Source: Bacteroidales bacterium
Lineage (GTDB): Bacteria; Bacteroidota; Bacteroidia; Bacteroidales; VadinHA17
Direction of reading: 5' to 3'
Assembly: GCA_031396165.1 (NCBI GenBank)
Contig: JANNKF010000170.1
Span: 1 to 49,132, forward strand
Length of the DNA: 49,132 nucleotides
The notes under the pieces were generated by a model. It did no database searches and was not told the origin of the DNA. It was given only the letters and a program-made list of their open reading frames with translations. Every line of letters begins with the position of its first letter. Position 1 is the stretch's first letter. Below, piece after piece: positions 18,297-44,550 of the stretch. Position numbers and translations under genes: made by a program.

Positions 18297-18398
18297 CCGG
18301 GAAGGGAGCAAAAACTAGGAATGAAGCAAACGCATGCAGGAAAAGGGAAGTTCGCTTAGTTTGATATGATAAAAGAAGATAATTGATATTAACTATTT

Positions 18399-24941: not shown

Positions 24942-25532
24942 TTATTTTGCAGGAGCAGGTGTTGCAACCGGCTTTATCTGTTTCGATTTAATAAACTTTT
25001 TCTGTTCTTCTGTAAGCAATTTAAGAACAGCTTCCTTATGAGAATCCCTCAGAACCTGCATTTTAGCAGCCGTCTCTTCCCTTAGTTTTTTCATCTCTTC
25101 CTGTTGCTTAAGACGCAGATCTGCAATATCTTTCTTCTGTTTCTCAGTAACGTTTGGAAGACTTTCGTTAATCAGTCTCTCCGGCTGCATCGGACCCATT
25201 GGTCTCATATCCCTCATGGGACGCATCCCGTTGCCATTCATTGACATATGTCCCATTCCACCTCTCATACCTGATCCATTGCCCCGACCCATGCTTCTTC
25301 CCATTCCCATACCCGGACCCATATTCAACATCATATTCTGATGCATCTTTCTCATCATTACAGAATCAGGTCCACTGCCTTTCTGCATCATGCCAGAACC
25401 GGGACCCATTTTCATCCTGTTCATCCTGGTTGAATCCATATTACCTCTCATTCCGCGCTGTGCAACAAGAGTTACACCCGATAATAACAGGATCATTAAT
25501 ATAAGTCCTGTTAATTTTACTGTTGTTTTCAT
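24942..25532 (-). CDS. Periplasmic Met/Gly-rich protein with LTxxQ-type (Spy/CpxP-like) C-terminal repeats
   Basis: 196-aa ORF with signal peptide MKTTVKLTGLILMILLLSGVTLVAQ. A ~90-aa Met/Gly-rich tract includes MGPGMGMGRSMGRGNGSGMRGGMGHMSMNGNGMRPMRDMRPMGPM. This is followed by VTEKQKKDI and LLTEEQKKFI motifs. Confidence 0.55.
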   Translation of the reverse strand: MKTTVKLTGLILMILLLSGVTLVAQRGMRGNMDSTRMNRMKMGPGSGMMQKGSGPDSVMMRKMHQNMMLNMGPGMGMGRSMGRGNGSGMRGGMGHMSMNGNGMRPMRDMRPMGPMQPERLINESLPNVTEKQKKDIADLRLKQQEEMKKLREETAAKMQVLRDSHKEAVLKLLTEEQKKFIKSKQIKPVATPAPAK

Positions 25533-26729: not shown

Positions 26730-28892
26730 ATGGACAGGAGAAAATTTATAAAGACCAGCACTGTTGCAGCAGGAGCATATGTAATAATTGAACCATCAAT
26801 GTTTTCCGGAATTGTGAATCCTGAAGAGGAAACATGGTTCAGTAAACCAATGAGATGGGCACAACTAACACTTGTTGAAAACGATCCGGGAAAATTTGAT
26901 CCTGACTTCTGGCTCAATTATTTTAAGAAAATTCATGCCGATGGAACAACTCTCAGCGCCGGTGGCATAGTAGCATATTACCCGACAAATATCCCTCTGC
27001 ACCACAGAAGTAACTGGCTCGGTACAAGTGATCCTTTCGGATACCTGGTAGAAGGAAGCAGAAAATTGAATATGTCAATAATTGCGAGGACTGATCCCCA
27101 TGCTGTTCGTCAGGATGTTTTTGATGCCCATCCCGACTGGATTTCAGTTACAGCTGAGGGCGAAAAAAGACGACACTGGGCGAATAAAGAACTGTGGGTA
27201 ACCTGTGCCTTTGGTCCATATAATTTTGAGTTTATGAGTCTGGTGCATAAAGAGATAATGCAACGTTATCTGCCAGATGGAATCTTTTCTAACAGGTGGG
27301 CTGGTCATGGCATTTGTTACTGTGAACATTGCACCAAAAATTTCAAAGTCTTTTCAGGTCTTGATCTGCCGAAAAGCAGTGCCCGTTCTGACAAATCGTA
27401 TCAGAAATACATGGAATGGAGCACAAACCGGTTAAAAGAGCTTTGGCTCCTGTGGGATGACATTATAAGGAAAGAGAAGCCCACATCGAGGTTTATTCCA
27501 AATGGATTTCCTGATAAAGTAATAACCGGCCAATTGTCTGATATAGTTTTCACTGACCATCAGGCAAGGAGCGGAAATACATTGCCATGGTCGAACGGAA
27601 AGGGGGCCAAGGAGTTACGTGCTTCAATAGGGATGAAACCCCTTGGAGGGATTTTCAGTGTCGGCGTGGAGGAACAATATAGGTGGAAGGATTCCGTGCA
27701 GACTGAAGCAGAAATCAGGATCTGGGTGGCTGAAGGCACTGCAAACGGGATGCGTCCATGGTTCACAAAGTTTTCAGGAGTTTTGTACGATAAACGGTGG
27801 CTCGATATTGTCGATAAAATCTACCAGGTACATTACAGATGTGAGAGTTATCTGAGAAATATAGTGCCGATGGCTCGTGTAGGAATGGTATTTACAGAAC
27901 AAAACCGTAATTACGGAAGCGAATCGTGGCAACAGAGAAGCGGTGACCATGGTTCAGGAATGTATCATGCACTCATTGAGGCACGTATGCCATTTGAAAT
28001 GGTAAATGACCGCCTTCTCGATGATGAACATCTTAAACAGTTCAGCCTGCTGATTCTTCCGAATATTGCAACTCTTTCGAAGGAGCAGAACGACCAGATA
28101 AGAAAATTTGTCGCAGCCGGAGGGAATATTCTGGCAACTTTTGAAACATCCCTTTACGATGAAGAAGGCAGAAAAAGGGTCGATTTCGGACTTGCCGACA
28201 TATTCGGGGTTTCTTATGATAATGGTATTGAAGGACCACTCCAAAACAGCTATCTAAGGTTAAAGGAAGAGAAACCAGGTGGTAAATTTCATCCGGTTTT
28301 GAAAGATCTTGAAGATGCGTACAGGATAATCAATACGGTCAATAAAGTTAAGGTAATTCACCGGACCTCTTTCCCCGAGCCGGTAACCGTTATTCCATCA
28401 TATCCCGACCTCCCGATGGAAGATGTTTATCCCCGGGTACCGGAAACGGATGACCGTGGCCTCTTTCTCAGGGATACAGGAAATAGCCGGATTGCCTATT
28501 TCCCCGGAGATATTGACAGGACCTTCTGGCAGATAATGAGCAATGATCATGGGAAACTGCTCCGGAACACAATCAGATGGGCACTAAATGAAGAGCCACG
28601 TATCGAGGTAAAAGGACCAGGTGTACTTGATGTCACTTTATGGAGACAAAAGAATTCAATGACAGCCCATCTTGTGAACTTAACTAACCCGATGATGATG
28701 AAGGGACCATTCAGGGAATTGATTCCTGTTAATGCAGAAGTAAGTATTACTATTCCTCAGGGCACCAAAGCCACTGCTGTCCGCCTTCTTGTCAGCGATG
28801 TTAACCCTTCTTTCGAATTAAAAGAAAACAGGATTATACTAAATGTACCACAGATTTTTGACCATGAGATAATTGGAATAGATTTGGGATAA
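26730..28892 (+). CDS. Tat-signal putative glycosidase (GHL6-like TIM barrel plus GH42-type trimerisation/GATase1-like domain)
   Basis: 720-aa ORF with twin-arginine motif MDRRKFIKTSTVAAGAYV. The middle segment FSLLILPNIATLSKEQNDQIRKFVAAGGNILATFETSLYDEEG resembles the GH42 middle domain. The N-terminal family assignment is from memory only. Confidence 0.45.
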   Translation: MDRRKFIKTSTVAAGAYVIIEPSMFSGIVNPEEETWFSKPMRWAQLTLVENDPGKFDPDFWLNYFKKIHADGTTLSAGGIVAYYPTNIPLHHRSNWLGTSDPFGYLVEGSRKLNMSIIARTDPHAVRQDVFDAHPDWISVTAEGEKRRHWANKELWVTCAFGPYNFEFMSLVHKEIMQRYLPDGIFSNRWAGHGICYCEHCTKNFKVFSGLDLPKSSARSDKSYQKYMEWSTNRLKELWLLWDDIIRKEKPTSRFIPNGFPDKVITGQLSDIVFTDHQARSGNTLPWSNGKGAKELRASIGMKPLGGIFSVGVEEQYRWKDSVQTEAEIRIWVAEGTANGMRPWFTKFSGVLYDKRWLDIVDKIYQVHYRCESYLRNIVPMARVGMVFTEQNRNYGSESWQQRSGDHGSGMYHALIEARMPFEMVNDRLLDDEHLKQFSLLILPNIATLSKEQNDQIRKFVAAGGNILATFETSLYDEEGRKRVDFGLADIFGVSYDNGIEGPLQNSYLRLKEEKPGGKFHPVLKDLEDAYRIINTVNKVKVIHRTSFPEPVTVIPSYPDLPMEDVYPRVPETDDRGLFLRDTGNSRIAYFPGDIDRTFWQIMSNDHGKLLRNTIRWALNEEPRIEVKGPGVLDVTLWRQKNSMTAHLVNLTNPMMMKGPFRELIPVNAEVSITIPQGTKATAVRLLVSDVNPSFELKENRIILNVPQIFDHEIIGIDLG

Positions 28893-28900
28893 AATCAAAA

Positions 28901-29057
28901 AAGGCTATCGACAATTATTAATATTAATACTATTGGGCTTGAAAATCAATTATTTGCCCCGGCCCTAAAGGGAGTAATTGATTTTCTTCGCACCCTTTAG
29001 GGTAAGGGGCTAACGAAGAAAATCAATAGGGCTTTATGCTTAATTTGTAAACTTCTT
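28901..29057. mobile_element. Second, diverged copy of the F2 MITE-like element
   Basis: The core 28937-29039 aligns by eye with 338-441 at roughly 85 percent identity. Left-end homology (GGCTATCGACAATTATTA vs GACTATCGGCAATCATGA) is retained. The right TIR is degenerate and no TSD is visible. It has the same orientation as copy 1 and ends 26 nt before the ATG at 29083. Confidence 0.65.
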
Positions 29058-29082
29058 TACTTATGAACGAAACAAATATATT

Positions 29083-30372
29083 ATGGCAACTACCAGACGA
29101 AAATTCATTACAACATCCATTGCAGGAGGCTTGGCTGCAACGCTGCCCGGTAAAGCATTTATCCCGGATTCTCCATTTCATATAACCGATGAGGTAAGAG
29201 GGAAATATTCAAAACTCGATGAAATACTAAAGAAACCGGTATTCAAAAAGGAGTTTTTTTCAACTCCGGTGATAATTGATACCCTTGAACTGCTGCGATA
29301 TAAAAACAGCTTCATCTGCAGGGTCAGATCAAAAGACGGTGCCGAGGGGATCTCAGTCGGCCATAGTGGTCAGTTGAGAACCCTCTACCCCGTTTTCACA
29401 AATCTGCTTCAGCCATTTTTCATTAATAAGGATGCACGCGACCTGGATCTGTTGATTGAAAAGGTATATATCTATCAGCTCAACTTCAGGCTATCGGGAA
29501 TGGCTCTCGGGGTGCCGCTTGCCACAATCGAATTTGCAATACTGGACATGATGGGACGAATAGCGAAGAAAACCATCGGACAGCTGATCGGTGATATAAA
29601 TAATCCAAATGTTGCTGTTTACCAGGCAACCGAATACCGTGAAAAACCTGTTGCAGAATCTATGGAACTGATAAAGAGGGATGTAGCAGAATATAATGCC
29701 AAAGCTCTGAAAATCAAAGTTGGCGGACTAATGTTCGGTACTGCCGATATTAATGCAGTTGGTCCGGCTGGCAGGACAGAAACGATCATTCCACTGGTCA
29801 GGAAAACTTTCGGAGATGATATGGTTCTTTATGGCGACTCAAACGGATTCTATTCAGTACCGGAAGCAATCAGAGTAGGAAAAATACTTGAAGAGTATAA
29901 ATTTCAGTTTTTTGAAGAACCTGTAATGTTCGACTGGTACGAAGAAACAAAACAGGTTGCCGATGCACTTTCAATACCTGTTGCCGGGGGAGAACAGGAG
30001 TATAGTCTTCATGGATTCCGGTGGCTGATCGCCAATGATGGTGTGCAGATAGTACAGCCCGATTATTTCTATTTTGGAGGTATGATACGCGCAATGAGGG
30101 TTGCCATGATGGCAAACGCTTTTGGGAAAAAATGTACTCCGCATATGACGGGTGGTGATCTGGGATTTCTGTATATGATTCAATTAGTATCAGCATTACC
30201 AAATGCTTTACCTTACCATGAATTTAAAGGATTTAAAACTGATATTATTTATGAATGTAAAACTTCACCCCTGAAAAGCGAAAATGGCGTGGTAAAGGTG
30301 CCAACAGGTCCGGGTTCAGGTGTGGAAATTGACCCGGAATTTATAAGGAAATTCCAGACTGTTCAGGGATGA
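29083..30372 (+). CDS. Enolase-superfamily enzyme, mandelate-racemase subgroup (acid-sugar dehydratase-like), with Tat signal peptide
   Basis: 429-aa ORF with Tat motif MATTRRKFITTSIAGGLAATLPGKAF. Catalytic and metal-ligand pattern: KxK (ALKIKVGG), Asp (YGDSNG), Glu (FFEEP), Glu (GGEQE), and an Asp...His pair (IVQPDYF, CTPHMTGG). Confidence 0.8.
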   Translation: MATTRRKFITTSIAGGLAATLPGKAFIPDSPFHITDEVRGKYSKLDEILKKPVFKKEFFSTPVIIDTLELLRYKNSFICRVRSKDGAEGISVGHSGQLRTLYPVFTNLLQPFFINKDARDLDLLIEKVYIYQLNFRLSGMALGVPLATIEFAILDMMGRIAKKTIGQLIGDINNPNVAVYQATEYREKPVAESMELIKRDVAEYNAKALKIKVGGLMFGTADINAVGPAGRTETIIPLVRKTFGDDMVLYGDSNGFYSVPEAIRVGKILEEYKFQFFEEPVMFDWYEETKQVADALSIPVAGGEQEYSLHGFRWLIANDGVQIVQPDYFYFGGMIRAMRVAMMANAFGKKCTPHMTGGDLGFLYMIQLVSALPNALPYHEFKGFKTDIIYECKTSPLKSENGVVKVPTGPGSGVEIDPEFIRKFQTVQG

Positions 30373-30427
30373 CAGAAAGTTTTAATTAAATTGCAGCACT
30401 AAAGATTCAATAATTCATTTTACATAT

Positions 30428-31348
30428 ATGATTACTCTGGGAATTCAAAGTGCCATTCTGGGCGATCTCTCTTTTGACGAGCTCATAGATTTTGCATCTG
30501 ATAACGGATTCTCCTGTGTCGAAATGATGTGCTGGCCAAAGGGACAGGCTAACAGGAAATATGCAGGTGTAACTCATATTGATGTTGGCACACTTGATGA
30601 TAATGAGATCAGCAGGATCAATAATAAGCTTAAAGATAGAAATGTATATATCTCAGGACTAGGCTATTATCCCAATCCGCTTGATCCTGACAAAGAGAAA
30701 TCAGATTTCTATATCGCTCATATTAAAAAAGTTATCGATGCTGCAGCCAGGCTTAATATTGGTATAATGAATACTTTTATTGGTGCCGATTCATCAAAAC
30801 ATGACGATGAGAACTTTGATAAATTCAGGCAGATCTGGCCACCCATTATCAGGTATGCAGAGGAGAAAAATGTTAAAATAGGAATTGAAAACTGTCCTAT
30901 GTTTTTTACAAGGGATGAATGGCCTTCGGGGAACAACCTGGCACACTCACCTGCATTATGGAGGAGAATGTTTGAAGCAATTCCATCCAAAAACTTCGGA
31001 TTGAATTATGATCCCTCCCACCTAATATGGCAGATGATGGATTATGTAAAGCCAATTTTCGAATTCAGGGAAAGGATTTTCCATGTGCACATAAAGGATG
31101 CCAGGGTTCTGTGGGAAAGAATAAATGAAGTTGGAATACTGACAACTCCGCTTAATTACCATACTCCAAAACTCCCCGGATTGGGAGATATTAACTGGGG
31201 AAAATTCTTTTCAGCACTTTACGAGGTCGGTTTTAACGGCAGTGCCTGTATAGAGGTTGAAGATAAATCCTTTGAAGGATCGCTTGAAAACAGAAAAACA
31301 GCACTCCTTCAAAGCAGAAACTACCTTCGTCAGTTTATAACCAAATAA
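30428..31348 (+). CDS. Sugar phosphate isomerase/epimerase (xylose-isomerase-like TIM barrel), no signal peptide
   Basis: 306-aa ORF. Family-typical blocks GFSCVEMMCWP, KIGIENCPM, GLNYDPSHLIWQ, HVHIKD and ACIEVED. Confidence 0.8.
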   Translation: MITLGIQSAILGDLSFDELIDFASDNGFSCVEMMCWPKGQANRKYAGVTHIDVGTLDDNEISRINNKLKDRNVYISGLGYYPNPLDPDKEKSDFYIAHIKKVIDAAARLNIGIMNTFIGADSSKHDDENFDKFRQIWPPIIRYAEEKNVKIGIENCPMFFTRDEWPSGNNLAHSPALWRRMFEAIPSKNFGLNYDPSHLIWQMMDYVKPIFEFRERIFHVHIKDARVLWERINEVGILTTPLNYHTPKLPGLGDINWGKFFSALYEVGFNGSACIEVEDKSFEGSLENRKTALLQSRNYLRQFITK

Positions 31349-31383
31349 ATCAATAACCTTACAACACAATAACTAAATAACCA

Positions 31384-31983
31384 ATGAAAAAAACAATCCT
31401 TGCACTATCAGTAATTTTGATTTTTTCCAATTTCTCAGCACCACAGAAAAAAGAATCTCTTTTCAACGGAAAAGACCTAACCGGATGGAAGATCTACGGC
31501 ACAGAAAAATGGTACGTTGAAAATGGTCTTCTTGTTTGCGAAAGTGGTCCAGATAAGAAATACGGTTACCTGGCAACTGAGAAATTCTACAAAAACTTCG
31601 ACATTACAGTTGAATTTCTTCAGGAAGCCAACGGGAACAGCGGTCTCTTTTTCCGTTCAACAATTGAGGGAACAAAAATTGCAGGCTGGCAGTGTGAGGT
31701 GGCTCCGCAGGGAAATGACACAGGTGGTATTTATGAATCTTACGGAAGAGGCTGGCTCAAACAGATTGAAGAAGAAAAAGAGAATATTCTTAAACCTGAA
31801 GAATGGAATAAACTGCGTCTCCGGGTCGAAGGCGACAGAGTGCAGACCTGGCTTAATGGGCAGCCAATGGTTGATTTTGCAGATGAAAAAATCGGTAAAG
31901 CAAACGGTTCAATTGCTCTCCAGATCCACGATGGAGGAGGTATTAAAGTCAAATGGCGCAATCTAATTATTCAGGAGCTTTAG
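31384..31983 (+). CDS. DUF1080 (3-keto-disaccharide hydrolase-like, concanavalin-type) secreted protein
   Basis: 199-aa ORF with a Sec signal peptide. Typical DUF1080 blocks LFNGKDLTGWKIYG, WYVENGLLVC, NFDITVEF, NSGLFFRS and GSIALQIHDGGGIKVKWRNL. Confidence 0.85.
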   Translation: MKKTILALSVILIFSNFSAPQKKESLFNGKDLTGWKIYGTEKWYVENGLLVCESGPDKKYGYLATEKFYKNFDITVEFLQEANGNSGLFFRSTIEGTKIAGWQCEVAPQGNDTGGIYESYGRGWLKQIEEEKENILKPEEWNKLRLRVEGDRVQTWLNGQPMVDFADEKIGKANGSIALQIHDGGGIKVKWRNLIIQEL

Positions 31984-31987
31984 AAAG

Positions 31988-33655
31988 ATGGTTCACCCCG
32001 GACTTGATAAGAAACTGGCGGGAGTTATCCGATATCTCAGGAAGAACAATTTCCTCAGCATAATTCTTCCTGTTGTTATAGGTGTACTGGCTATTATCTG
32101 GTTTCTGATCAGGGTAATACCAAAACCTTCAAGGGCATCATACCCATGCATGAAACTGGCCTATCCGCTGATGTCCGGACTTGTAATTTGGTTATTGGGA
32201 ATAACCGGTATCTACACTTCATTCAAACTAATAGTAAAGTACATTTCAGTCAGGAAATATATTTTTGCATCAATATCAGTTTTGTCTCTTCTCATTTTTG
32301 GTATCATTCATATTACTCTGCAGACCGGATCTGTAGCAGCAAGTCCGGAGTACAAGGATCCTGTCCATATTGCCAATGAGCCTTTTGGTGAAGCAACCGG
32401 AATAGTTCCCGGTCGGGTTATCTGGAACTGGAACCCGGAGGCAACAAATGAGAATTGTACAAATAATATGAATATCGCCGATGGCTATTTTCTGGATAAG
32501 AATAATAATCAGGATGTTATAGATAAAATGCTATCGGATGTCATGAACTCTGTTTCGGACAGAAAGAATATCAAAGAATCATGGAATGCCCTCTTCACAC
32601 ACTTCAATAGTAAGAAAGGAAGAGGTGAAACCGGATATAAAAATGATCAGACAATTTTTATAAAAGTTAATTACGGTTGTGCCAACTGGAACACTAAACC
32701 CGATCTGACAAGAAAAGACGGATCAAAAGGATATGCTGAAACTTCGCCACAGCTGATTTTGTCTCTGCTCAGGCAGCTGGTGAATACTGCAGGTGTTCCC
32801 CAGGAGAGGATTTTTGTTGCCGACCCTATGGCTCACATTTATTCAGATGTTTTTGATATACTCCACAACGAATTTCCCGATGTAAAATATGGGGATAAGG
32901 CAAGTACTTCAACAGCAATCGGCCGTACTCTGCTTACTCCTGAGAAGACGCCTGCACTGATTTATTCCGATAAAGGTACTGTCCTGACAAAACCATCCGA
33001 TTGTCTTTATTCTGAAATGCAGAATGCTGATTATCTTATAAATATATCTGCCCTGAAGGCACATGGATGTGCGGGTGTTACATTCACAGCCAAGAACCAT
33101 TTTGGTTCAATAGCGAGCAATACTGCTTCACATCTGCATGCTGCACTTGTCGGGTCAAGGAACGACCAGCCTTACAGGGTTGATTACGGTATGTACAGGA
33201 TACAGGTTGACCTTATGAGCAGTAAATACCTGGGAGGCAATACATTATTATATATTGTTGACGGATTATGGGGTGGAACAGAGGCTACTGAAACCCCAGT
33301 AAAATGGCAGATGCCACCATTTAATAATGACTGGCCAAGTTCGCTTTTTGCTTCACTCGACCCCGTAGCCCTCGAATCGGTCTGCTTCGATTTTTTAAGG
33401 TATGAAACAAAAATCGGTCTCCCTCAATGGAAAAACAGGGCAAACATGGCTCAGGGTGTGGATGATTATCTTCACCAGGCAGCTTCAAAGGAAAACTGGC
33501 CAAAAGATATTACTTATGATCCTGATAACAGTGGAAAACCAATCAGCAGTCTCGGCATTCATGAACACTGGAACAATCCGGTGGAGAAAAACTATTCCAG
33601 AAATCTTGGTAAATCTACAGGTATTGAGTTAGTTAAGATTTCTGCTGTTAAGTAG
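31988..33655 (+). CDS. DUF362 domain protein with N-terminal multi-TM anchor
   Basis: 555-aa ORF. It starts 4 nt after the DUF1080 stop. The first ~115 aa contain 3-4 hydrophobic helices. The block INISALKAHGCAGVTFTAKNHFGS matches the DUF362 signature as I remember it. Confidence 0.65.
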   Translation: MVHPGLDKKLAGVIRYLRKNNFLSIILPVVIGVLAIIWFLIRVIPKPSRASYPCMKLAYPLMSGLVIWLLGITGIYTSFKLIVKYISVRKYIFASISVLSLLIFGIIHITLQTGSVAASPEYKDPVHIANEPFGEATGIVPGRVIWNWNPEATNENCTNNMNIADGYFLDKNNNQDVIDKMLSDVMNSVSDRKNIKESWNALFTHFNSKKGRGETGYKNDQTIFIKVNYGCANWNTKPDLTRKDGSKGYAETSPQLILSLLRQLVNTAGVPQERIFVADPMAHIYSDVFDILHNEFPDVKYGDKASTSTAIGRTLLTPEKTPALIYSDKGTVLTKPSDCLYSEMQNADYLINISALKAHGCAGVTFTAKNHFGSIASNTASHLHAALVGSRNDQPYRVDYGMYRIQVDLMSSKYLGGNTLLYIVDGLWGGTEATETPVKWQMPPFNNDWPSSLFASLDPVALESVCFDFLRYETKIGLPQWKNRANMAQGVDDYLHQAASKENWPKDITYDPDNSGKPISSLGIHEHWNNPVEKNYSRNLGKSTGIELVKISAVK

Positions 33656-33663
33656 TTCCTGAT

Positions 33664-34626
33664 TTATTTCGTCAAAGTGTAAAACTCATATCTTATTGTC
33701 CACTCGGTAACTTCACCCGGTTCAGCTTTTATTTTGATATATGGTTCAGGACAAAGTGTCGTTGCACAGTTCCAGTAATTTAGTTTCTGAAATGGTCTGT
33801 CGCATCTTATCCTTACACCTGCACCTGTTTTTCGGTTTTCAATTCTGATATCATAATCCTTTGGATCAGGTCCAAACCCTTTCATCTCACCGCAAAATAC
33901 TGTTTCTCCGTCTTTTACAGTCCGGAGGAACTGAATACTATTGTCTTTAATTTCAGCCAGCTCTCCGATACCCTGACCGGTGCCTGTAATATTGAATGGG
34001 AACTTAATTATAAAATCAGGACCAATCGGCTGATTATCAATAACAAAGAAATTATGATCATAAGCACTTGTTTCAATCGTTTTTGTTCCTGTGTTTTTAA
34101 GTGTATGATGAAGTACAAGTTCGGGCTTATCTTTTGTAAGACTGACTGTTTTCTCATAGTGATATGAGTAGATTTTATCGTTGAGATCATGAATAAATAA
34201 TACCTGGTCTGATTGTTTTTTCACACTCCATGTACCGGCATTTACCACAGGATAAAGTCTGCTGAAAGTGTATGGCTTATCATCAGGTTTTGTGAGTACA
34301 CCCACTCCTATCTTGATGAAATTCTCTCCTGGCTTTGTTTCCGGATAGTCCAGTGCAACGAACTCTTCAACCGGACCCATGATAACATCATGTATTTCAG
34401 GACTATATTTTGCGAACCACTGTCCAAAATAACTGTGTCCTTTATATTCAAGTACAGGCATATTGCCTGACCAGTCGAACCGGGTACCCCTGTAATATCC
34501 TTTCTTTGCATCGGGAAGATAAAATTTTGCATTTATTATACCATTTGTAATCTCTGCCTGTGGAATCTTCATAAACGGTAATGCGCTGATTGTCAGTCCG
34601 GATAAAAAATAATATAGTCTTTTCAT
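33664..34626 (-). CDS. Secreted galactose-mutarotase-like (aldose 1-epimerase superfamily) protein, tentative
   Basis: The track ORF starts at a TTG (34674). The ATG at 34626 gives MKRLYYFLSGLTISALPFM, a signal peptide. LKNTGTKTIETSAYDHNFF and NYWNCATTLCPEPY resemble mutarotase-fold blocks. Recognised by eye. Confidence 0.4.
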   Translation of the reverse strand: MKRLYYFLSGLTISALPFMKIPQAEITNGIINAKFYLPDAKKGYYRGTRFDWSGNMPVLEYKGHSYFGQWFAKYSPEIHDVIMGPVEEFVALDYPETKPGENFIKIGVGVLTKPDDKPYTFSRLYPVVNAGTWSVKKQSDQVLFIHDLNDKIYSYHYEKTVSLTKDKPELVLHHTLKNTGTKTIETSAYDHNFFVIDNQPIGPDFIIKFPFNITGTGQGIGELAEIKDNSIQFLRTVKDGETVFCGEMKGFGPDPKDYDIRIENRKTGAGVRIRCDRPFQKLNYWNCATTLCPEPYIKIKAEPGEVTEWTIRYEFYTLTK

Positions 34627-34670
34627 ACCTTTTAATTTTACTGTTAATATATTAACACAAGAATATTTTG

Positions 34671-35822
34671 TCAACCGTTCTTTGCCACTGCTTCAATTAG
34701 TCCTCTTATGTAACCTGCTGCATACAGGCTCCCAAGTGCACTGTAGCCCGGGCTTTGGTTACTGTCTCCAGCCATTGTCGGCACATGATCGGGACGTAAT
34801 GGACCCTGAAAACCTGTTTCAATATAAGCTTTCATGGCAGCATACATATCTATCTGGCCTTCATCATGAAAGGTCTCTTCAAAATTCATTTTCCCTCCCC
34901 TCACATTTCTGAAATGTACAAAATGAATCAGTTGCTTATTGCCAAATTCCCTGACAAGTGTTGGAATATCTTCACCCATAAGTGAAAAATTTCCCTGGCA
35001 CATTGTAATCCCGTTATTAGGACTGGGGTATATAGCAGCCATTCTTCTGAAAGCATCAGCTGTTGTCATAATTCTTGATATGCCCCTGATGCTCTCGACC
35101 TGGGGATCATCGGGATGCATCGCAAGTTTTATTCCGGCCTTTTCTGCTTCAGGAACAACAGCCTTCAGGAAGTATTCAAGGTTTTTCCAGAGACTCTCTT
35201 TGGATACATCCCCATATTTTGTAAGGGTGTTATCCTTAATATCCTCATAATCAAATGCTGTAACAAGCGCTCCTCCCCTTCCCGGACGATCAGTTGTGGT
35301 ACGTGCCCAGCTGATAACCGGCATCCAGTTATAACAGATTGTATCTATACCAGCCTTTGAGAGATTCTTCATCAGGGTTATGAAGTTTGAGATCTCCTGA
35401 TCCCTTCCTTCAAGGCCAAGCTTAGTTTTTTCACCAAGTGATGGCGGACCCTCAATCACTTCAAGTTTTAATCCTGCTTTTTCCCAGACATTTTTTACAG
35501 CAGAAACTGCCTCAAGATCCCATGAATTAACATTCTGCAGACCTGCCATCCGCGGATTTATTCCACCAACTGCGCCAAGCACATTTAGCTGCTTGCCGAA
35601 CTCAGCCTTTCTCTTTTCAGCTTCCAACCCTCCGAAATAAGCGAAACACATTTTAATCCCTGCGTCGGGAATATACTCTTTTGATTTAACCTTTTTCTTC
35701 GGTAGCATATCATGTAAAACAGAATCACCTGTCAGTCCTGAAACCGATGAATTCATTCCGATAACCGACAGAGCAGCCAGTGCTGTTCCTTTTTTGAGAA
35801 AATCCCTTCTATTATTCTTCAT
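34671..35822 (-). CDS. UxuA-family mannonate dehydratase homologue with Tat signal peptide
   Basis: 383-aa ORF with Tat motif MKNNRRDFLKKGTALAALSV. UxuA blocks align by eye with E. coli UxuA: CYNWMPVISWARTT, FLKAVVPEAEKAGIKLAMHPDDP, ITMCQG, HFVHFRNV, DMY, LRPDH and SPGYSALG. Confidence 0.8.
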   Translation of the reverse strand: MKNNRRDFLKKGTALAALSVIGMNSSVSGLTGDSVLHDMLPKKKVKSKEYIPDAGIKMCFAYFGGLEAEKRKAEFGKQLNVLGAVGGINPRMAGLQNVNSWDLEAVSAVKNVWEKAGLKLEVIEGPPSLGEKTKLGLEGRDQEISNFITLMKNLSKAGIDTICYNWMPVISWARTTTDRPGRGGALVTAFDYEDIKDNTLTKYGDVSKESLWKNLEYFLKAVVPEAEKAGIKLAMHPDDPQVESIRGISRIMTTADAFRRMAAIYPSPNNGITMCQGNFSLMGEDIPTLVREFGNKQLIHFVHFRNVRGGKMNFEETFHDEGQIDMYAAMKAYIETGFQGPLRPDHVPTMAGDSNQSPGYSALGSLYAAGYIRGLIEAVAKNG

Positions 35823-35840
35823 CTTATATAGTTCTGATTA

Positions 35841-37202
35841 TCAAGGTTTAATTATTGTTCCATCACTCGATCTCACCTGCCAGTTCGAACGTGTGTTTAT
35901 CGGATATTTTGCTGCTTCCTTTTCATTTATATCAACTCCAAGTCCGGGCACCTCATTTACCGACATATAACCTTTATTCATTGTAGGGCAACCTGAAAAA
36001 ACCGATTGAAGCTTTTCTGAGAAACTAACCGATTCCTGAATCCCAAAATTCCAGACCGCCAGGTCCATATGGCAATTCGCAGCATGGCCCACAGGAGATA
36101 CATCACCCGGTCCGTGCCATGCAGTTCGTATGTTGAACCACTCACCCAAACGAGCTATTTTCATAGCAGGTGTTATTCCACCAATCTGCGAAACATGAAC
36201 CCGAATATAATCGAACCACTGGTTTACCATAGGCATTTTGAACTCATTAACATTATTGAAAAGTTCACCCATTGCAATTGGCACAGATGTGGTAGCCCGA
36301 AGCTGTTTGAACCACTCCATGTTCTCGGGAGAAAACGGATCTTCAATAAAGAAAGGATTATATTCCTCCACCCTTTTTATAAGATTAATTGCATCTATCG
36401 GTTGAACCCGTTCATGAATATCATGAAGCAGTTCAACTTCCTCACCACATGCTTTACGTACTGCTTCGAACATTTTCGGGACCGAATTAAGATAAGCTCT
36501 CTGATCCATGAAATTATCGGTTGCACCACCAAAGCCCACCTCTTTAAAGTCAGGCTTGGATCCCAAAGTTCCAACCCCGCCATAACCACCAAGCTGGATC
36601 CGGATATGCCTGAATCCCTGTTCCATAAAGCGCTTTACGGATTGGACTACCTCTTCATTTGTCCGGCCGCTGGCATGAGTATAGCATGGAACAGCAAACC
36701 TGGCTTTTCCTCCAAGCAACTGAGGTACAGGCATTCCGGCGCGTTTGCCTTTGATATCCCATAAAGCCTGATCTACACCACTTAGCGCATTATTCAAAAC
36801 CGGACCATTCCTCCAGTAAGAACTGACATAAGCCCCCTGCCACATATCTTCAATATTATCAACATCTTTGCCTGTGCAAAAATCATTCAGGTAACTATTA
36901 ATTGCAGTTATAACGACCTCAGCACGCTGGGTAAAGGTAGCACATCCCAATCCATATAACCCCGGTTCGGTTGTTTCAACTTTAACAACAATAAGGTTTG
37001 ATCCAGCAGGAGCAGTGGCTATTGCTTTCACGCTTTTTATTTTAACGGGAGCCATCCCGCTTGCGTAAGAGGGCTTTACATAATTTTCAGCCCTGGCAAA
37101 TGGCGCACCGAATAGTCCCAACAGTCCGGCAGTTGAACCGGCAGCCAGAAGTTTCATTGCATCGCGGCGGCTGGTTATTGGTTTAGATTCAGAATTTTTC
37201 AT
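35841..37202 (-). CDS. Enolase-superfamily ManD-subgroup (D-mannonate/D-gluconate dehydratase-like) protein with Tat signal peptide
   Basis: 453-aa ORF with Tat motif ITSRRDAMKLLAAGSTAGLLGLFGAPFARA. ManD-type blocks VKVETTEPGLYGLGCATFTQR, SSYWRNGPVLNNALSGVDQALWDIKGK, LLHDIHERV, FFIEDP and AMGELF. Confidence 0.8.
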   Translation of the reverse strand: MKNSESKPITSRRDAMKLLAAGSTAGLLGLFGAPFARAENYVKPSYASGMAPVKIKSVKAIATAPAGSNLIVVKVETTEPGLYGLGCATFTQRAEVVITAINSYLNDFCTGKDVDNIEDMWQGAYVSSYWRNGPVLNNALSGVDQALWDIKGKRAGMPVPQLLGGKARFAVPCYTHASGRTNEEVVQSVKRFMEQGFRHIRIQLGGYGGVGTLGSKPDFKEVGFGGATDNFMDQRAYLNSVPKMFEAVRKACGEEVELLHDIHERVQPIDAINLIKRVEEYNPFFIEDPFSPENMEWFKQLRATTSVPIAMGELFNNVNEFKMPMVNQWFDYIRVHVSQIGGITPAMKIARLGEWFNIRTAWHGPGDVSPVGHAANCHMDLAVWNFGIQESVSFSEKLQSVFSGCPTMNKGYMSVNEVPGLGVDINEKEAAKYPINTRSNWQVRSSDGTIIKP

Positions 37203-37275
37203 CTTTTGTTTTTTAGAATGAATAAAATTACAATAAAACCATCAAAAATTCATCAACATTGGCGTTTAGAATGAA

Positions 37276-37434
37276 TTATTCATAAACTTAGTTAAGATGC
37301 TCTATTCCTTTGTGTTCCTTTGTGCTGTACTTTGTGTTCCTTCGTGGTAAAAAAAAGCTTAACCACAAACCTGCATGCCGGTAGGCAGGGGCGCACTAAG
37401 GATTACACAAAGGATCACAAAGGTTTATGAATAA
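37276..37434. repeat. 159-bp palindromic element (family F4: CCTTTGTG / CACAAAGG words) in a divergent promoter region
   Basis: Termini TTATTCATAAAC (37276-37287) and GTTTATGAATAA (37423-37434) form a perfect 12-bp inverted repeat. The left half has CCTTTGTG x2, ACTTTGTG and CCTTCGTGG. The right half has CACAAAGG x2. The centre has TTAACCACAAA plus hairpin CCTGCATGCCGGTAGGCAGG (37370-37389). Confidence 0.8.
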
Positions 37435-37493
37435 AGCAGGTTAGATCTGTTAAATAGATAAAATTAAATATGTCATTTCTCCTCACAATTACG

Positions 37494-37501
37494 TAAATTT
37501 G
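37494..37501 (+). promoter_or_regulatory. Candidate Bacteroidota -7 promoter box (TAnnTTTG)
   Basis: TAAATTTG lies 34 nt upstream of the ATG at 37535. Confidence 0.35.
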
Positions 37502-37534
37502 GATAGTTCGTTCTGATCATAATACTTAAATATC

Positions 37535-38407
37535 ATGAAAAAACTATCAAGAAGAGAATTTCTGGGCAAAAGTGCACTTGGGATCGGATCGGTTGTTCTG
37601 GCATCCCGTCTCCCTGTTGAGGCATATGGTTCTGAACCTCCGAAACCCGTTAAAATGCCGCTGGGATTTCAGGTCTGGACTGTAAAGGATAAGCTGATTA
37701 AAGATTTTCCGGGAACATTAAAAGAGATTGCGGGTTTAGGATATAAATCCGTTGAGATGTGTTCTCCTCCCGGATATGAGAGTTCTGGGTTTGGACCACT
37801 GATGAAGCTGACAGCCAAAGAGATGAAGAAGATAATTAACGATGCCGGACTCTCTTTTGACAGCACTCATTATGGAATGTCGGAACTGAGAAAGCAGCTC
37901 GATGAACGGATTGCGTTTGCCGGAGAATCGGGTCAGAAACAGATGATACTCTCCAGTTTCGGATTACCAAAAACGGCAACTATGAGCGATTGGATGAAAG
38001 CTGCTGATGAGCTTAATACAATTGGAATGAAAACAAAACAATCGGGAATTCAGATTGGCTTTCACAACCACCATGCCGAATTTGAAAAAATAGATGGTAC
38101 ACTCATTTATGATGAATTGCTCAAACAGTTTGATCCTGACTATGTTAAGATGCAATTCCAGGTTGCAGTTATCAGCATCGGATATAAAGCTTCGGACTAT
38201 TTTACAAAATACCCGGGCAGATTCATCTCCGCACATCTTGCTGACTGGTCACCAACTGAAAAGAAAAATGTAACCCTCGGAAAGGGAATTGTTGATTGGA
38301 AAGAATTTTTCGCCGCGATCGATAAAGGTGGTGTTAAGAACATCTTTGTCGAAATGGATATAGAAACTTTTAAAGATAGTGCAACATTCATTAACTCCGG
38401 TCTTTAG
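37535..38407 (+). CDS. Sugar phosphate isomerase/epimerase (xylose-isomerase-like TIM barrel) with Tat signal peptide
   Basis: 290-aa ORF with Tat motif MKKLSRREFLGKSALGIGSVVLA. TIM-barrel blocks GYKSVEMCSP, IGFHNHHAEF and IFVEMD. Confidence 0.8.
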   Translation: MKKLSRREFLGKSALGIGSVVLASRLPVEAYGSEPPKPVKMPLGFQVWTVKDKLIKDFPGTLKEIAGLGYKSVEMCSPPGYESSGFGPLMKLTAKEMKKIINDAGLSFDSTHYGMSELRKQLDERIAFAGESGQKQMILSSFGLPKTATMSDWMKAADELNTIGMKTKQSGIQIGFHNHHAEFEKIDGTLIYDELLKQFDPDYVKMQFQVAVISIGYKASDYFTKYPGRFISAHLADWSPTEKKNVTLGKGIVDWKEFFAAIDKGGVKNIFVEMDIETFKDSATFINSGL

Positions 38408-38439
38408 GCCGGAGATAACCTAATCAAAATACTTTAAAA

Positions 38440-39948
38440 ATGGCACGTTCAAAACAAATTAATCGTCGTGAATTTCTGGGATCAGCCGCAGCTGCTTCCC
38501 TCGCTATTACAATTGTTCCCCGTCAGGTTCTTGGTGGTAAGGGTTATATAGCCCCAAGTGATAAAGTAACTCTTGGATACATAGGATGCGGAACACAGGG
38601 TTTGAGAGAGATGGCATCTCTCATTGCAAATCCGGCATTGCAGATCGTTGCCGTATGCGACCCTAACAAATTCACCACCGATTATGTGGACTGGTCAGCC
38701 AATGATGTCAGGAATGGTATCAGAAAGGCATTAGGCGATAATACCTGGGGTGAAGCAATAAAAGGTATTCCCGGCGGAAGGGACATCGGTCAGGAATTTG
38801 TCCAGAAATACTATGGAAAAGCCAAAGATTCAGGCACATACAAAGGATGTGCATCTTATGAGGATTTCAGGGAATTGCTTGAAAAAGAAAAAGACCTGAA
38901 TGCTATAAAAATCATGACTCCTGATCATTTGCATGGAACTGTTGCAATTGCATCCCTTAAAAAAGGGAAACATGTGGTAACTCATAAACCAATTGCCAAC
39001 AGGATGCATGAAGCAAAACTTCTGATCGATACTGCTAAGAAAACCGGTCTGAGCACACATCTTCTTGCCTGGAGTAACAGACCTGATTATCTGATCATCA
39101 AAAAGTGGATTGACGAAGGAAAAATCGGAAAACTAAAAGAGATTCATAACTGGTCCAACAGACCTGTGTGGCCACAGTGGCAGGCAAATCCGGTTGAAAC
39201 TGTTCCGGTACCAAAAAACTTTAACTGGGATCTCTGGCTTGGACCTGTTCCTGACCGTCCTTATCATCCTAATTACACACATGCAGTGTTCCGTGGGTGG
39301 TATGACTTTGGCGCAGGAAGTATTGCAGATATGGGGCATTACAGCCTTTTCCCGTTATTTCTTGCGCTCGGAATAAATAAACCGGCAATCAGCGCCGAAT
39401 CATATGCCACAACAACATGTGCCCTGCAAAACAATGTATCCGTAGGGGTTAAAAATGATGTGGCTTTTCCTTTATCCTGCATGGTAAGATTTAAGTTTGA
39501 AGCACAGCCAACACTTCCTGCTTTCGACCTGTATTGGTACGATGGAGGTATGAGACCATTCCCCACACCGGATCTGGAAGCTGTAGGGAAAACATTTGAA
39601 AGGGAAGGAATGATGTTTGTGGGTGAAAAAGGAAGAATAGTAGCCGGATTCAGAGGAGAGAAACCTGTGCTTTATGCAAATGGAACAACTGCGGTGGGAG
39701 AACCGGTAACTGCAGCAAGTCTCGCACAGGATAGTAACGATGTATGGATCAACTCATTCAGGAACAATACCCAGTCCCCGGGTAGTTTTCTATATGCCGG
39801 ACCGGTAACTGAAACCATACTTTTGGGTGGAGTAGCATTGAGGGCAGGTAAAAAGGTTGAATATGACACAGTTAATATGAAAATCAGCAATCTGCCGGAT
39901 GCGAACAAGTACCTCGTAAGGGAGTATCGTAAGGGTTGGGAACTTTAG
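38440..39948 (+). CDS. Gfo/Idh/MocA-family NAD(P)-dependent oxidoreductase with Tat signal peptide
   Basis: 502-aa ORF with Tat motif SKQINRREFLGSAAAASLAITIV. Rossmann start LGYIGCGTQGLREM. Also IMTPDHLHGTVAIASLKKGKHVVTHKP. Confidence 0.85.
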   Translation: MARSKQINRREFLGSAAAASLAITIVPRQVLGGKGYIAPSDKVTLGYIGCGTQGLREMASLIANPALQIVAVCDPNKFTTDYVDWSANDVRNGIRKALGDNTWGEAIKGIPGGRDIGQEFVQKYYGKAKDSGTYKGCASYEDFRELLEKEKDLNAIKIMTPDHLHGTVAIASLKKGKHVVTHKPIANRMHEAKLLIDTAKKTGLSTHLLAWSNRPDYLIIKKWIDEGKIGKLKEIHNWSNRPVWPQWQANPVETVPVPKNFNWDLWLGPVPDRPYHPNYTHAVFRGWYDFGAGSIADMGHYSLFPLFLALGINKPAISAESYATTTCALQNNVSVGVKNDVAFPLSCMVRFKFEAQPTLPAFDLYWYDGGMRPFPTPDLEAVGKTFEREGMMFVGEKGRIVAGFRGEKPVLYANGTTAVGEPVTAASLAQDSNDVWINSFRNNTQSPGSFLYAGPVTETILLGGVALRAGKKVEYDTVNMKISNLPDANKYLVREYRKGWEL

Positions 39949-43462: not shown

Positions 43463-43464
43463 GC

Positions 43465-43941
43465 TTATTTCCCTCCTTTCATTTCAGTGGAAGCCGTCTT
43501 AACAGCCTCAACGATCCTTACATGAGCGCCACAACGGCATAAATTATCTTCCATTCCTTCCTTTATCTGCCCTGTAGTCGGAGAAGGATTTTTAAGTAAC
43601 AAACCAGTTGCATTCATGATCATCCCGGGTGTACAGAAACCGCACTGCAGCGCATCATGCTCAACGAATGCTTTCTGAACAGGGTGTAACTTTCCATTGA
43701 CGGAAAGACCTTCTATTGTAACCACTTTTTTACCGGCAACTTCCCCAACGGGGATCTGGCAGGATCTTACAGCTTCATTGTCTATTAATACAGTACATGA
43801 ACCACAGAATCCCATTCCGCAGCCATACTTGGTTCCTGTAAGCCCGAAATGATCACGCAGCACCCACAAGAGTGTCTGTGCAGGATCGAGCAGGGCTTCA
43901 GTTTTTTTTCCATTTAACTGAAAAGCAATCTTCTGTTCCAT
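43465..43941 (-). CDS. (2Fe-2S)-binding small subunit of the molybdenum hydroxylase
   Basis: 158-aa ORF. Two cluster motifs: GCGMGFCGSCTV and CGFCTPGMIM...CRCGAH. It lies 2 nt upstream of the large-subunit gene. Confidence 0.9.
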   Translation of the reverse strand: MEQKIAFQLNGKKTEALLDPAQTLLWVLRDHFGLTGTKYGCGMGFCGSCTVLIDNEAVRSCQIPVGEVAGKKVVTIEGLSVNGKLHPVQKAFVEHDALQCGFCTPGMIMNATGLLLKNPSPTTGQIKEGMEDNLCRCGAHVRIVEAVKTASTEMKGGK

Positions 43942-43943
43942 AA

Positions 43944-44537
43944 TTACATTTTTTGATTAATTTCCTTTAAATATTCTTCATAAGTATCAAAGTCCCTGAG
44001 TATTTCCTGATCCTCCGTCTCAACCTCCAGAACGTCGTCAGGGAAGAGTTGTGCCAATGATCTCAGGCCTTCATTATCGTTAAGATCCTTAATTTTGTAA
44101 AAGTACTTTCTTCCTATCATCAGCGGGTGTCCGCGCTTTTTATTATTAACCGGTATAACAATCTCTTTTTCAGATGAATTAAATGCTTCTATTACTGTGT
44201 TTGTTACTCCGGAAGTTATAAATGGCTGATCGCCCTGAAAAACCAAAACAGCATTGCAATTCACGGGTATATTTATAATTCCGCATTTCACTGATGAAAG
44301 CATTCCAAGTTTGTAATTATCATTATAACAGAGTATTACATTCGATTTTATAATCAATTCCGTAATCTTCTCCTTCTCTGCCCCCAAAACTACCAATGTA
44401 TTATCGATATTCGATCCGGTAACATTTTCAATAACCCTCTCCAGCATACTCTTTCCGTTAAAGTTAAGAAGCATTTTCGGAAATCCCATTCTTTTTGATT
44501 CCCCTGCTGCAAGTATTATCGCCCAGATCTCTCCCAT
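43944..44537 (-). CDS. Nucleotidyltransferase, MocA-like molybdenum cofactor cytidylyltransferase
   Basis: 197-aa ORF with N-terminal AIILAAGESKRMGFPKMLL motif. Context is between XdhC and the hydroxylase subunits. Confidence 0.7.
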   Translation of the reverse strand: MGEIWAIILAAGESKRMGFPKMLLNFNGKSMLERVIENVTGSNIDNTLVVLGAEKEKITELIIKSNVILCYNDNYKLGMLSSVKCGIINIPVNCNAVLVFQGDQPFITSGVTNTVIEAFNSSEKEIVIPVNNKKRGHPLMIGRKYFYKIKDLNDNEGLRSLAQLFPDDVLEVETEDQEILRDFDTYEEYLKEINQKM

Positions 44538-44550
44538 TCTTAAATTCTAT

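Follow-up and report, generated by a model that had tools for sequence, protein, structure and literature searches.

Sugar-acid dehydratase homologs with predicted twin-arginine signals in a ten-gene island of a Bacteroidales genome

INTRODUCTION

Sugar-acid dehydratases of the UxuA family and the enolase superfamily are taken as cytoplasmic in pathway reconstruction and automatic annotation. A public metagenome-derived Bacteroidales contig (JANNKF010000170.1), whose whole length of 49,132 bp is referred to here as the window, carries an island of ten open reading frames (ORFs; g1 to g10, positions 26730 to 39948) in which homologs of such dehydratases (g2, g7, and g8) begin with twin-arginine (RR) motifs. 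The locus raises two questions: are these enzymes exported, and do the ten genes form one system? Because the RR signals appear to be under selection, export of six of the ten proteins by twin-arginine translocation (the Tat pathway) is very probably the best reading. The ten genes do not make up one fixed unit but fall into modules.

If this were true for thousands of Bacteroidota homologs, metabolic models of Bacteroidota from soil and sediment would misplace the compartment of these steps and miss the transport of keto-deoxy acids, and several SusC/SusD loci without glycoside hydrolases would gain a candidate function. It would also provide a clear case of Tat delivering Mg/Mn-dependent, nonredox triosephosphate isomerase (TIM)-barrel enzymes. 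Cultured carriers exist (Spirosoma sordidisoli, Larkinella rosea, and Mucilaginibacter polytrichastri), so the idea is directly testable.

RESULTS AND DISCUSSION

Gene content of the island

The island consists of three strand blocks: g1 to g5 (+; 26730 to 33655), g8-g7-g6 (−; 37202 to 33664), and g9-g10 (+; 37535 to 39948). An initial annotation, made from the sequence, had proposed these ten genes and blocks, and the ORFs were confirmed. Its family assignments agreed with Pfam and NCBIfam profile searches, the mutarotase-like label of g6 being supported by fold only (Table 1), and the six RR strings were present exactly as it quoted them, at positions 3 to 12 of their proteins. The accompanying count of six Tat signals, two general secretory (Sec) signals, and one transmembrane anchor stood for the RR proteins, for g4 and g6, and for the hydrophobic segments of g5, but it silently left out g3, which has no signal. 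In agreement with the same annotation, profile searches of the island and flanking genes detected no transporter, kinase or aldolase (including those for 2-keto-3-deoxygluconate [KDG]), regulator, or SusC/SusD gene in the island.

TABLE 1 Features of the island and of its surroundings in the window
Feature	Position	Strand	Predicted product or content	Matches
g1	26730..28892	+	Tat-signal (DRRKFIK) GHL6/GH42-like TIM-barrel protein	PF14871, PF08532
g2	29083..30372	+	Candidate acid-sugar dehydratase of the mandelate racemase (MR) subgroup, enolase superfamily; borderline RR signal (TRRKFIT)	MR_MLE_C/N
g3	30428..31348	+	Xylose-isomerase-like TIM barrel without signal peptide	AP_endonuc_2
g4	31384..31983	+	Sec-signal DUF1080/3-keto-disaccharide hydrolase-family protein	PF06439
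g5	31988..33655	+	Membrane-anchored DUF362 protein	PF04015
g6	33664..34626	−	Sec-signal galactose-mutarotase-fold protein, last of the g8-g7-g6 block	AlphaFold model, Foldseek
g7	34671..35822	−	Tat-signal (NRRDFLK) UxuA-like dehydratase	PF03786
g8	35841..37202	−	ManD-subgroup dehydratase of the enolase superfamily; Tat signal (SRRDAMK) with ARA cleavage motif	MR_MLE N and C domains; PDB 3T6C
g8/g9 intergenic region	37203..37534		332-bp divergent spacer; TAAATTTG motif located ca. 40 bp upstream of the start codon of g9	
g9	37535..38407	+	Tat-signal (SRREFLG) TIM barrel, AL1/BT1 3-keto-glycoside lyase homolog	AP_endonuc_2; PDB 8TCD
g10	38440..39948	+	Tat-signal (NRREFLG) Gfo/Idh/MocA oxidoreductase, AL3/BT3 glycoside 3-dehydrogenase homolog	GFO_IDH_MocA; NF058561; PDB 8TDF
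Mo-hydroxylase cluster	41309..45696	−	Possible island extension: Tat-signal Mo-hydroxylase large subunit, 2Fe-2S subunit, MobA-like protein, XdhC	MoCoBD_1/2, Fer2_2, NTP_transf_3, XdhC (Pfam)
Secreted protein	24942..25532	−	196-aa protein with low-complexity region	
Beta-propeller genes	10765..13535		Two paralogous DUF5128/DUF4934 genes	
RND transporter genes	14882..21440		HlyD-type adaptor, two AcrB-family genes	

Twin-arginine export signals

The first 45 residues of each protein were compared with the Tat profile TIGR01409 (cutoff, 16.7 bits). Five island proteins passed, namely, g1 (21.1 bits), g7 (22.4 bits), g8 (19.1 bits), g9 (22.7 bits), and g10 (17.8 bits). The mean Kyte-Doolittle values of the Tat hydrophobic regions (h-regions) were 1.08 to 1.99, compared with 2.16 to 2.75 in the two non-Tat RR N termini of the window, and none of the six RR proteins contained a 19-residue segment with a value of ≥1.6. 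RR N termini elsewhere in the window were found in 2 of 24 other genes (one of a strongly hydrophobic Sec/transmembrane type and one lipoprotein signal); the adjoining Mo-hydroxylase also bears RR at its N terminus.

Conservation of the signals was examined in relatives of g7. A scan of one genome per species yielded 261 close relatives, and 80 loci were kept; they represent Bacteroidales, Prolixibacteraceae, Rikenellaceae, Sphingobacteriales, Cytophagales, and Chitinophagaceae. Of 83 UxuA orthologous loci, 82 have RR with a hydrophobic stretch behind it. Column conservation was 0.72 for residues 1 to 22 (approximately 0.99 at the RR), 0.20 for the linker (residues 23 to 52), and 0.79 for the mature enzyme, a pattern that would be expected for a functional targeting signal plus spacer. 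All ManD-like homologs of 451 to 454 aa carry S/T-RR-[DE]-[AT]-[LMI]-K, then an h-region and usually an A-x-A site, and the RR was found in all three g2 orthologs. Internal start codons that would remove the RR motifs were considered and rejected: conservation of the RR region at the protein level speaks against them, and for g7, g8, and g10 the NCBI gene calls on this contig give the same full-length products, with the starts used here. The initial proposal of a Tat-exported enzyme set acting outside the cytoplasm is thus supported for the RR proteins; it does not extend to g3, which is predicted to be cytoplasmic, and it is less secure for g2, which did not reach the TIGR01409 cutoff.

Probably exported homologs of sugar-acid dehydratases

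The g7 protein matched PF03786 (302 bits) and the UxuA structure 3BAN (1e-57). It exceeded the cutoff of the subfamily model NF003027 (261 versus 191 bits) and fell short of that of the equivalog TIGR00695 (188.2 versus 199.55 bits). In alignment with 3BAN and 1TZ9, it keeps HPDDP (236), the Cys in TMCQG (273), HFRNV (303), and RPDH (343), which we take to be the metal-binding and catalytic positions of UxuA. It also matched AP_endonuc_2, the TIM-barrel family of the AL1 lyases described below (34.5 bits; cutoff, 31.1). In a library of 1.8 billion proteins, the nearest 50%-cluster representatives were short UxuA-like proteins, not canonical UxuA, and RR was present in 16 of the 91 full-length representatives near g7, some of them from Acidobacteriota; the neighborhood of one Terriglobia (Acidobacteriota) Tat-UxuA-like gene contained no informative partners.

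For g8, the structures 3T6C, 4IHC, and 3TW9, presumably low-efficiency D-gluconate/D-mannonate dehydratases of the ManD subgroup, were matched at about 1e-138 across the whole mature length, the alignment beginning at residue 47. The protein scored below both the NCBIfam ManD equivalog NF043051 (397 versus 550 bits) and the D-galactonate dehydratase family (389 versus 430 bits). Residues D261, H263, E287, and E313, spaced as expected, provide the Asp/Glu/Glu Mg ligands and the His; they correspond to D210, H212, E236, and E262 of NaManD, with an offset of 51. The third homolog, g2, matched MR_MLE_C (174 bits) and the structures 3U4F (8e-48) and 5OLC (2e-33), reached no NCBIfam equivalog, and holds the KxK and His-Asp motifs, with KxK, D, E, E, D, and H all in place. 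Judged from these residues, g7, g8, and g2 all look catalytically competent.

The island enzymes thus share folds, metal ligands, and catalytic motifs with cytoplasmic UxuA (3BAN and 4EAC), ManD (3T6C, 3TW9, and 2QJJ), and DgoD, the last from the De Ley-Doudoroff pathway. Unlike those enzymes, the island-type proteins have N-terminal extensions of 45 to 55 residues that carry the conserved RR signals, and their scores lie under the equivalog cutoffs. The hexuronate genes UxaC, UxuB, KdgK, and KdgA were also absent beside the UxuA-like genes, both in the window and in 91 related loci.

The g8 and g7 genes lie head to tail with a spacing of 18 nt. Downstream, the TTG start of the longest g6 ORF (34674) would place the first 4 nt of g6 within g7, whereas the ATG start (34626) of a 320-aa product, which is the public gene call, leaves 44 nt between the two genes. 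No Pfam or NCBIfam match was obtained for g6. An AlphaFold (AF2) model built from 39 homologs had a predicted local distance difference test (pLDDT) value of 82, and the top 30 Foldseek matches were mutarotase-like (3Q1N, 3DCD, and 3NRE at 5e-11 to 9e-11; TM scores of 0.53 to 0.57). On this modeled structure, the term "mutarotase-like" appears valid at the level of fold.

A putative, divergent 3-keto-glycoside module

A periplasmic 3-keto-glycoside pathway has been described for BT2156-BT2160 of Bacteroides thetaiotaomicron and AL1-AL5 of Alistipes (Liu et al. 2021; PMC8121099; Nasseri et al. 2024; bioRxiv 10.1101/2024.03.25.586180). A Gfo-type enzyme that bears a Tat signal and binds NAD tightly oxidizes the glycoside at C-3, a TIM-barrel enzyme eliminates the aglycone, and a DUF1080 protein hydrates the product; the components are mostly signal bearing, and one is cytosolic (PMC8121099; 10.1101/2024.03.25.586180). 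A glucuronide-specific variant is known (10.1101/2024.03.25.586180), and Price et al. widened the role of DUF1080 to other bacteria (PMC9007349).

By sequence, g10, g9, and g4 are homologs of this pathway (BT2156-2159/AL1-4), to which g3 probably also belongs. The best NCBIfam model for g10 was NF058561 (BT_2158_fam), at 277 bits against a cutoff of 750; the g10 N terminus alone aligns to the start of this model, and the closest structures were 8TDF (1e-53) and 8TDH (4e-53). The g9 protein matched AP_endonuc_2 (53 bits), 8TCD (3e-22), 8TCS (1e-21), and 8TCT (3e-19). The g4 protein, with a Sec-type N terminus, matched PF06439 (136 bits; formerly DUF1080, currently named 3-keto-disaccharide hydrolase), 4JQT (6e-25), and, at about 2e-4, 8TDA and 8RR2. 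Matches of g3 were to AP_endonuc_2 (153 bits), 2ZDS (1.5e-14), and, weakly, the 2-hydroxy-3-keto-glucal hydratase 8RO4 (8.5e-6). Its N terminus (MITLGIQS) has no signal, and the 55-bp gap to g2 leaves no space for one. We predict that g3 is cytoplasmic or is exported with the help of a partner.

Like the published clusters, the island thus combines a Tat-signal Gfo/Idh/MocA protein, a TIM-barrel lyase homolog, a signal-bearing DUF1080 protein, and one signal-less member (g3 here, AL4/BT4 there). It differs from them in that g4 is distant from BT2157 and in that neither a second (cytosolic) oxidoreductase nor a SusR- or DUF6377-type regulator was found between 23.9 and 47.5 kb. Because of these two missing components and because g10 lies well below the equivalog cutoff, this part of the island appears to be a divergent member of an already published system. 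Conversely, the BT2156-2160 and AL1-5 clusters have no UxuA, enolase-superfamily, DUF362, or GHL6 genes, which are present here.

Recurrent partners in related loci

Neighborhoods were counted in UxuA-centered and Tat-ManD-centered loci, and 91 related loci were used for the DgoK/DgoA and Uxa/Uxu/Kdg checks. Full synteny with the window, including the Tat-signal Mo-hydroxylase, was found only in close Bacteroidales relatives of at least 75% identity; in other orders, Tat-UxuA has different partners. The initial view of the ten genes as one system is therefore abandoned in favor of modules. Bacteroidales-type genomes have the architecture of this window (type A), in which Tat-UxuA and a g6-like gene occur with Tat-ManD, DUF362, Tat-Gfo, TIM barrels, DUF1080, and the Mo-enzyme. 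In Prolixibacteraceae, Sphingobacteriales, Chitinophagaceae, and some Cytophagales (type B), the partners of Tat-UxuA are a Sec-signal RraA-like protein (27 loci), a pyrroloquinoline quinone (PQQ)-cytochrome c dehydrogenase (15 loci), an SBF/PanS-like transporter (11 loci), a second Tat-enolase clade (11 loci), major facilitator superfamily (MFS) transporters (7 loci), and SusC/SusD (13 and 12 loci, respectively).

The RraA-like protein (about 310 aa, with a pyruvate-aldolase/oxaloacetate-decarboxylase fold) is the commonest neighbor of Tat-UxuA (L002, L009, L030, L036, L087, L090, and about 20 other loci) and was present in all 11 loci with the SBF transporter; together with this putative keto-acid transporter, it hints at a periplasmic aldol-cleavage step. 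No locus combined the RraA-like protein with the Mo-enzyme (12 loci), and none combined the PQQ dehydrogenase with Tat-Gfo (12 loci). The dehydratase is retained while the periplasmic oxidoreductase is swapped, which suggests that the dehydratase acts downstream of periplasmic oxidation. Among 15 UxuA-centered loci carrying a g6-like gene, 10 have it within 10 kb of Tat-ManD, and in L084, L085, L088, and L089 the two adjoin or are one gene apart. DUF362 was found with Tat-ManD in 10 of 13 loci. Several recurring partners of the dehydratases, namely, the g6-like and RraA-like proteins, the PQQ or Tat-Gfo oxidoreductases, and SusC/SusD, are likewise predicted to be extracytoplasmic.

The most informative arrangement was that of Spirosoma sordidisoli (L084; 2749 to 18908), which comprises LacI, Tat-MR, SusC, SusD, Tat-ManD, Tat-DgoD, a g6-like gene, a PQQ-cytochrome c dehydrogenase, DgoK, DgoA, and an MFS transporter. 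Its Tat-DgoD passed the galactonate dehydratase equivalog cutoff (446 versus 311 bits), and signals are lacking only in the regulator, the kinase, and the aldolase. The simplest reading of this gene set is that the periplasm would be the site of both galactose oxidation and galactonate dehydration; the keto-deoxy acid would then be imported via the MFS transporter and finished inside. The cluster resembles a polysaccharide utilization locus (PUL) with three Tat-signal enolase-superfamily paralogs and no glycoside hydrolase, and L038 holds a cluster of the same kind. Among the Tat-ManD-centered loci, L088 carries FecR, SusC, SusD, a g6-like gene, PQQ dehydrogenase, and Tat-ManD; L089 is a minimal trio of Tat-ManD, a g6-like gene, and an AL1-like Tat-TIM barrel; and L087 and L090 carry SusC, SusD, an RraA-like gene, and two or three enolase-superfamily genes. 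RR was present in all three of those genes in L090; in L087, the start called for the one paralog examined falls behind the RR position.

A non-PUL function, for which the missing SusC/SusD pair of the island might have spoken, was rejected, as related loci carry SusC/SusD. Transporters and KDG kinase/aldolase are not routine members of the related loci: DgoK with DgoA occurs in 2 of 91, and SusC/SusD, SBF, and MFS genes occur in some. Where present, such genes complement periplasmic dehydration and do not refute it. In PUL proteomics of Maribacter, a Gfo-type GH109 protein was coexpressed with a "mannonate dehydratase" whose location was not commented on (PMC11036162).

Proposed mechanism

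We lean toward reading the island as a set of extracytoplasmic sugar-processing modules, a keto-glycoside module and exported dehydratases with later import, and not as a single ten-step pathway. From the genes, families, signals with their conservation, and neighborhoods observed here, we infer the export itself, which substrates are used, in what order the steps run, and how the two modules are connected.

The first module (g9, g10, g4, and perhaps g3) would be a version of the known 3-keto-glycoside route. The Tat-exported g10, with tightly bound NAD(P), would oxidize a glycoside at C-3, a metal-dependent TIM-barrel lyase would eliminate the aglycone, and DUF1080 or a TIM-barrel hydratase would rehydrate the product. 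Periplasmic glycosides and oligosaccharides would thus be cleaved both by this module (g10, g9, and g4) and by the GHL6-type g1.

The second module (the g8-g7-g6 operon, g2, and probably g5) would be a Tat-exported set of ManD-, UxuA-, and MR-type sugar-acid dehydratases. Tat export would fit these enzymes because they must fold, oligomerize, and acquire Mn/Mg in the cytoplasm before they cross the membrane. The g6 protein may equilibrate free aldoses and so supply the right anomer. Aldonic acids could then be formed in the periplasm by Tat-Gfo acting at C-1, by the adjacent Tat Mo-hydroxylase as an aldehyde oxidase, or by both, and in aerobic relatives the PQQ-cytochrome c dehydrogenase would be the acid-forming oxidoreductase. 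Still in the periplasm, the g8, g7, and g2 proteins would turn aldonic or uronic acids by dehydration into 2-keto-3-deoxy acids, which would be imported and broken down by a kinase and an aldolase encoded elsewhere.

Several points weigh against this scheme. The substrates of g7 and g8 are uncertain because their scores lie below the UxuA and ManD equivalog cutoffs, and the RR signal of g2 scored 13.8 bits with TIGR01409, under the 16.7-bit threshold. The closest relatives of g10 are C-3-oxidizing glycoside dehydrogenases, not C-1-oxidizing ones; such enzymes make no sugar acids, and the island is therefore left with no evident supplier of the acid substrates. The place of DUF362 (g5) in the scheme is a weak point. 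The 49-kb contig, which is the only part of the genome in view, contains no lactonase, transporter, kinase, or aldolase for such a route and no tat genes (tatA/tatC). In many Cytophagales genomes, Tat-UxuA stands alone among unrelated genes.

A broader reading, which we regard as rather unlikely, is that Bacteroidota and some Acidobacteriota run an upper oxidative pathway of the Entner-Doudoroff/De Ley-Doudoroff type in the periplasm. Anomer equilibration would be followed by oxidation to the aldonic acid and by dehydration through Tat-exported UxuA, ManD, DgoD, or MR enzymes; in some lineages, aldol cleavage by the secreted RraA-like protein would come next, and only small keto-acids would be imported. 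In a bolder variant, the dehydration of oligosaccharides would itself be a form of glycan cleavage: dehydrating aldonate- or uronate-ended oligosaccharides would break glycosidic bonds by beta-elimination, a second nonhydrolytic route beside the 3-keto pathway.

Alternative explanations

The alternative that survives best, itself improbable, is one integrated pathway. The UxuA- and ManD-like proteins would belong to the keto-glycoside route, where they could, for instance, be lyases or hydratases of oxidized uronide or aldonate-ended oligosaccharides, and they would not act on free sugar acids. Glycosidic bonds would then be cut by beta-elimination after oxidation or dehydration. The divergent adjacency of g8 and g9, the composition of the L089 trio, the match of g7 to the family of the AL1 lyases, the existence of a glucuronide-specific keto pathway, and the several related SusC/SusD clusters that hold only enolases and RraA-like genes, with no glycoside hydrolase, are all consistent with it. 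It accords poorly, however, with the full-length similarity of g8 to the dehydratases of free gluconate and mannonate, with the Tat-DgoD ortholog beside DgoK and DgoA, a setting that implies a route for monomeric galactonate, and with the partners in aerobic relatives, which are PQQ dehydrogenases of the glucose/quinate type and not glycoside 3-dehydrogenases.

Less probable still is loose co-location, in which independent periplasmic and cytoplasmic enzymes would share one lineage's neighborhood and no common substrate, the one common feature being Tat export, which Bacteroidota use for many TIM-barrel and Rossmann enzymes. The restriction of full synteny to close relatives, the reshuffling of modules between loci, the solitary Tat-UxuA genes, and the missing regulator would all be expected under this explanation. 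Against it stand the tight, same-strand arrangement of g8, g7, and g6 (spacings of 18 nt and ≤44 nt), the recurrence across orders of the g6-ManD, DUF362-ManD, and SBF-RraA pairs, and the exchange of the oxidoreductase type with the dehydratase retained.

That the RR N termini are not export signals at all, being uncleaved, cytoplasm-facing membrane tethers or miscalled starts of dehydratases that act in the cytoplasm, is very unlikely: the unclear AxA cleavage site and long variable linker of g7 and the TIGR01409 result for g2 point that way, but the RR and h-region are conserved where the linker is not, independent gene calls share the starts of g7, g8, and g10, g8 has an ARA site, neighboring proteins carry Sec signals, and the g10 N terminus is common to BT2158-family proteins, which are predicted Tat substrates (PMC8121099).

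Relation to known periplasmic and cytoplasmic routes

The initial annotation had also regarded the pathway logic as probably new for these dehydratase families. Periplasmic carbohydrate oxidation and the 3-keto pathway are already published, and four of the island genes are homologous to the latter. We found no paper describing exported forms of UxuA, ManD, MR, DgoD, or gluconate or galactonate dehydratases (searched as Tat or periplasmic), and none describing the recurrent link of such dehydratases with mutarotase-fold, RraA-like, and PQQ/Gfo partners in SusC/SusD loci. The claim of novelty is thus kept for the exported dehydratases and their recurrent partners.

Periplasmic sugar oxidation takes place in Pseudomonas and Gluconobacter, through routes that use a PQQ glucose dehydrogenase, and in Zymomonas, through a Tat-exported, NADP-loaded glucose-fructose oxidoreductase (cited in PMC8121099). 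The modules proposed here resemble these systems in that sugars would be oxidized outside the cytoplasm and a cofactor-loaded enzyme exported by Tat, and PQQ-cytochrome c dehydrogenases adjoin in the 15 related loci. The known routes end with gluconate or ketogluconate; these are taken up and then dehydrated inside, whereas here the dehydration itself appears to be exported. The archaeal nonphosphorylative Entner-Doudoroff pathway, which is cytoplasmic, uses an enolase-superfamily gluconate dehydratase, a KDG aldolase, and a Mo-dependent glyceraldehyde dehydrogenase. Predicted counterparts occur in the present clusters, namely, the dehydratases, the pyruvate-aldolase fold of the RraA-like protein in type B loci, and the Mo-hydroxylase, for which glyceraldehyde dehydrogenase subunits are among the best NCBIfam matches; unlike in the archaeal pathway, the last two never occur together in the loci sampled.

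Other genes of the island and the window

The large subunit of the adjacent Mo-hydroxylase has the Tat motif IPRRDFFK. The best NCBIfam matches of the cluster (glyceraldehyde dehydrogenase, PaoC, and XdhA) were all under cutoff. The cluster keeps synteny with the island in 12 loci, Tat-Gfo being present in 10 of these, and it may be an aldehyde- or aldose-oxidizing partner of the island.

The g1 protein scored 51 bits with PF14871 (GHL6) and 26.5 bits with PF08532 (Glyco_hydro_42M), and its weak structural matches were to a GH151 fucosidase and GH42 galactosidases. RR was present in five of six homologs in related loci. It is a candidate periplasmic glycosidase.

The g5 protein matched PF04015 (55.7 bits) and has hydrophobic segments at residues 23 to 41, 54 to 72, and 86 to 104. 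Directly after the first membrane segment, residues 38 to 54 form an invariant motif, WFLxRVIPKPxRAxYPC, common to 11 homologs of 45 to 63% overall identity; in locus L002, the motif region stands as a separate 156-aa ORF. There was no PDB sequence match for g5, and a single-sequence structure model (pLDDT of 34) gave no usable fold.

The divergent g8/g9 intergenic region is likely the promoter region for both flanking blocks. Its TAAATTTG motif (37486 to 37500) is similar to the Bacteroidetes −7 promoter element. An Rfam scan gave no match in this region, and Rfam and tRNA scans of the whole window were empty. Scans for sigma-70 promoters (31 versus 35 expected) and terminators (10 versus 12 expected) were at chance level.

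Outside the island, a long low-complexity region rich in Met, Gly, and Arg and a C-terminal LTEEQKKF-type motif mark the secreted 196-aa protein, for which there was no Pfam match; a periplasmic protein of Spy/CpxP-like or metal-binding type is one possibility. The two paralogous genes for six-bladed beta-propellers occupy the part of the window with the lowest GC content (0.32, compared with about 0.40 elsewhere). The single HlyD-type adaptor gene is followed by two consecutive genes for AcrB-family resistance-nodulation-division transporters (1,091 and 1,013 aa), in the first of which the ACR_tran profile match is confined to the N-terminal half.

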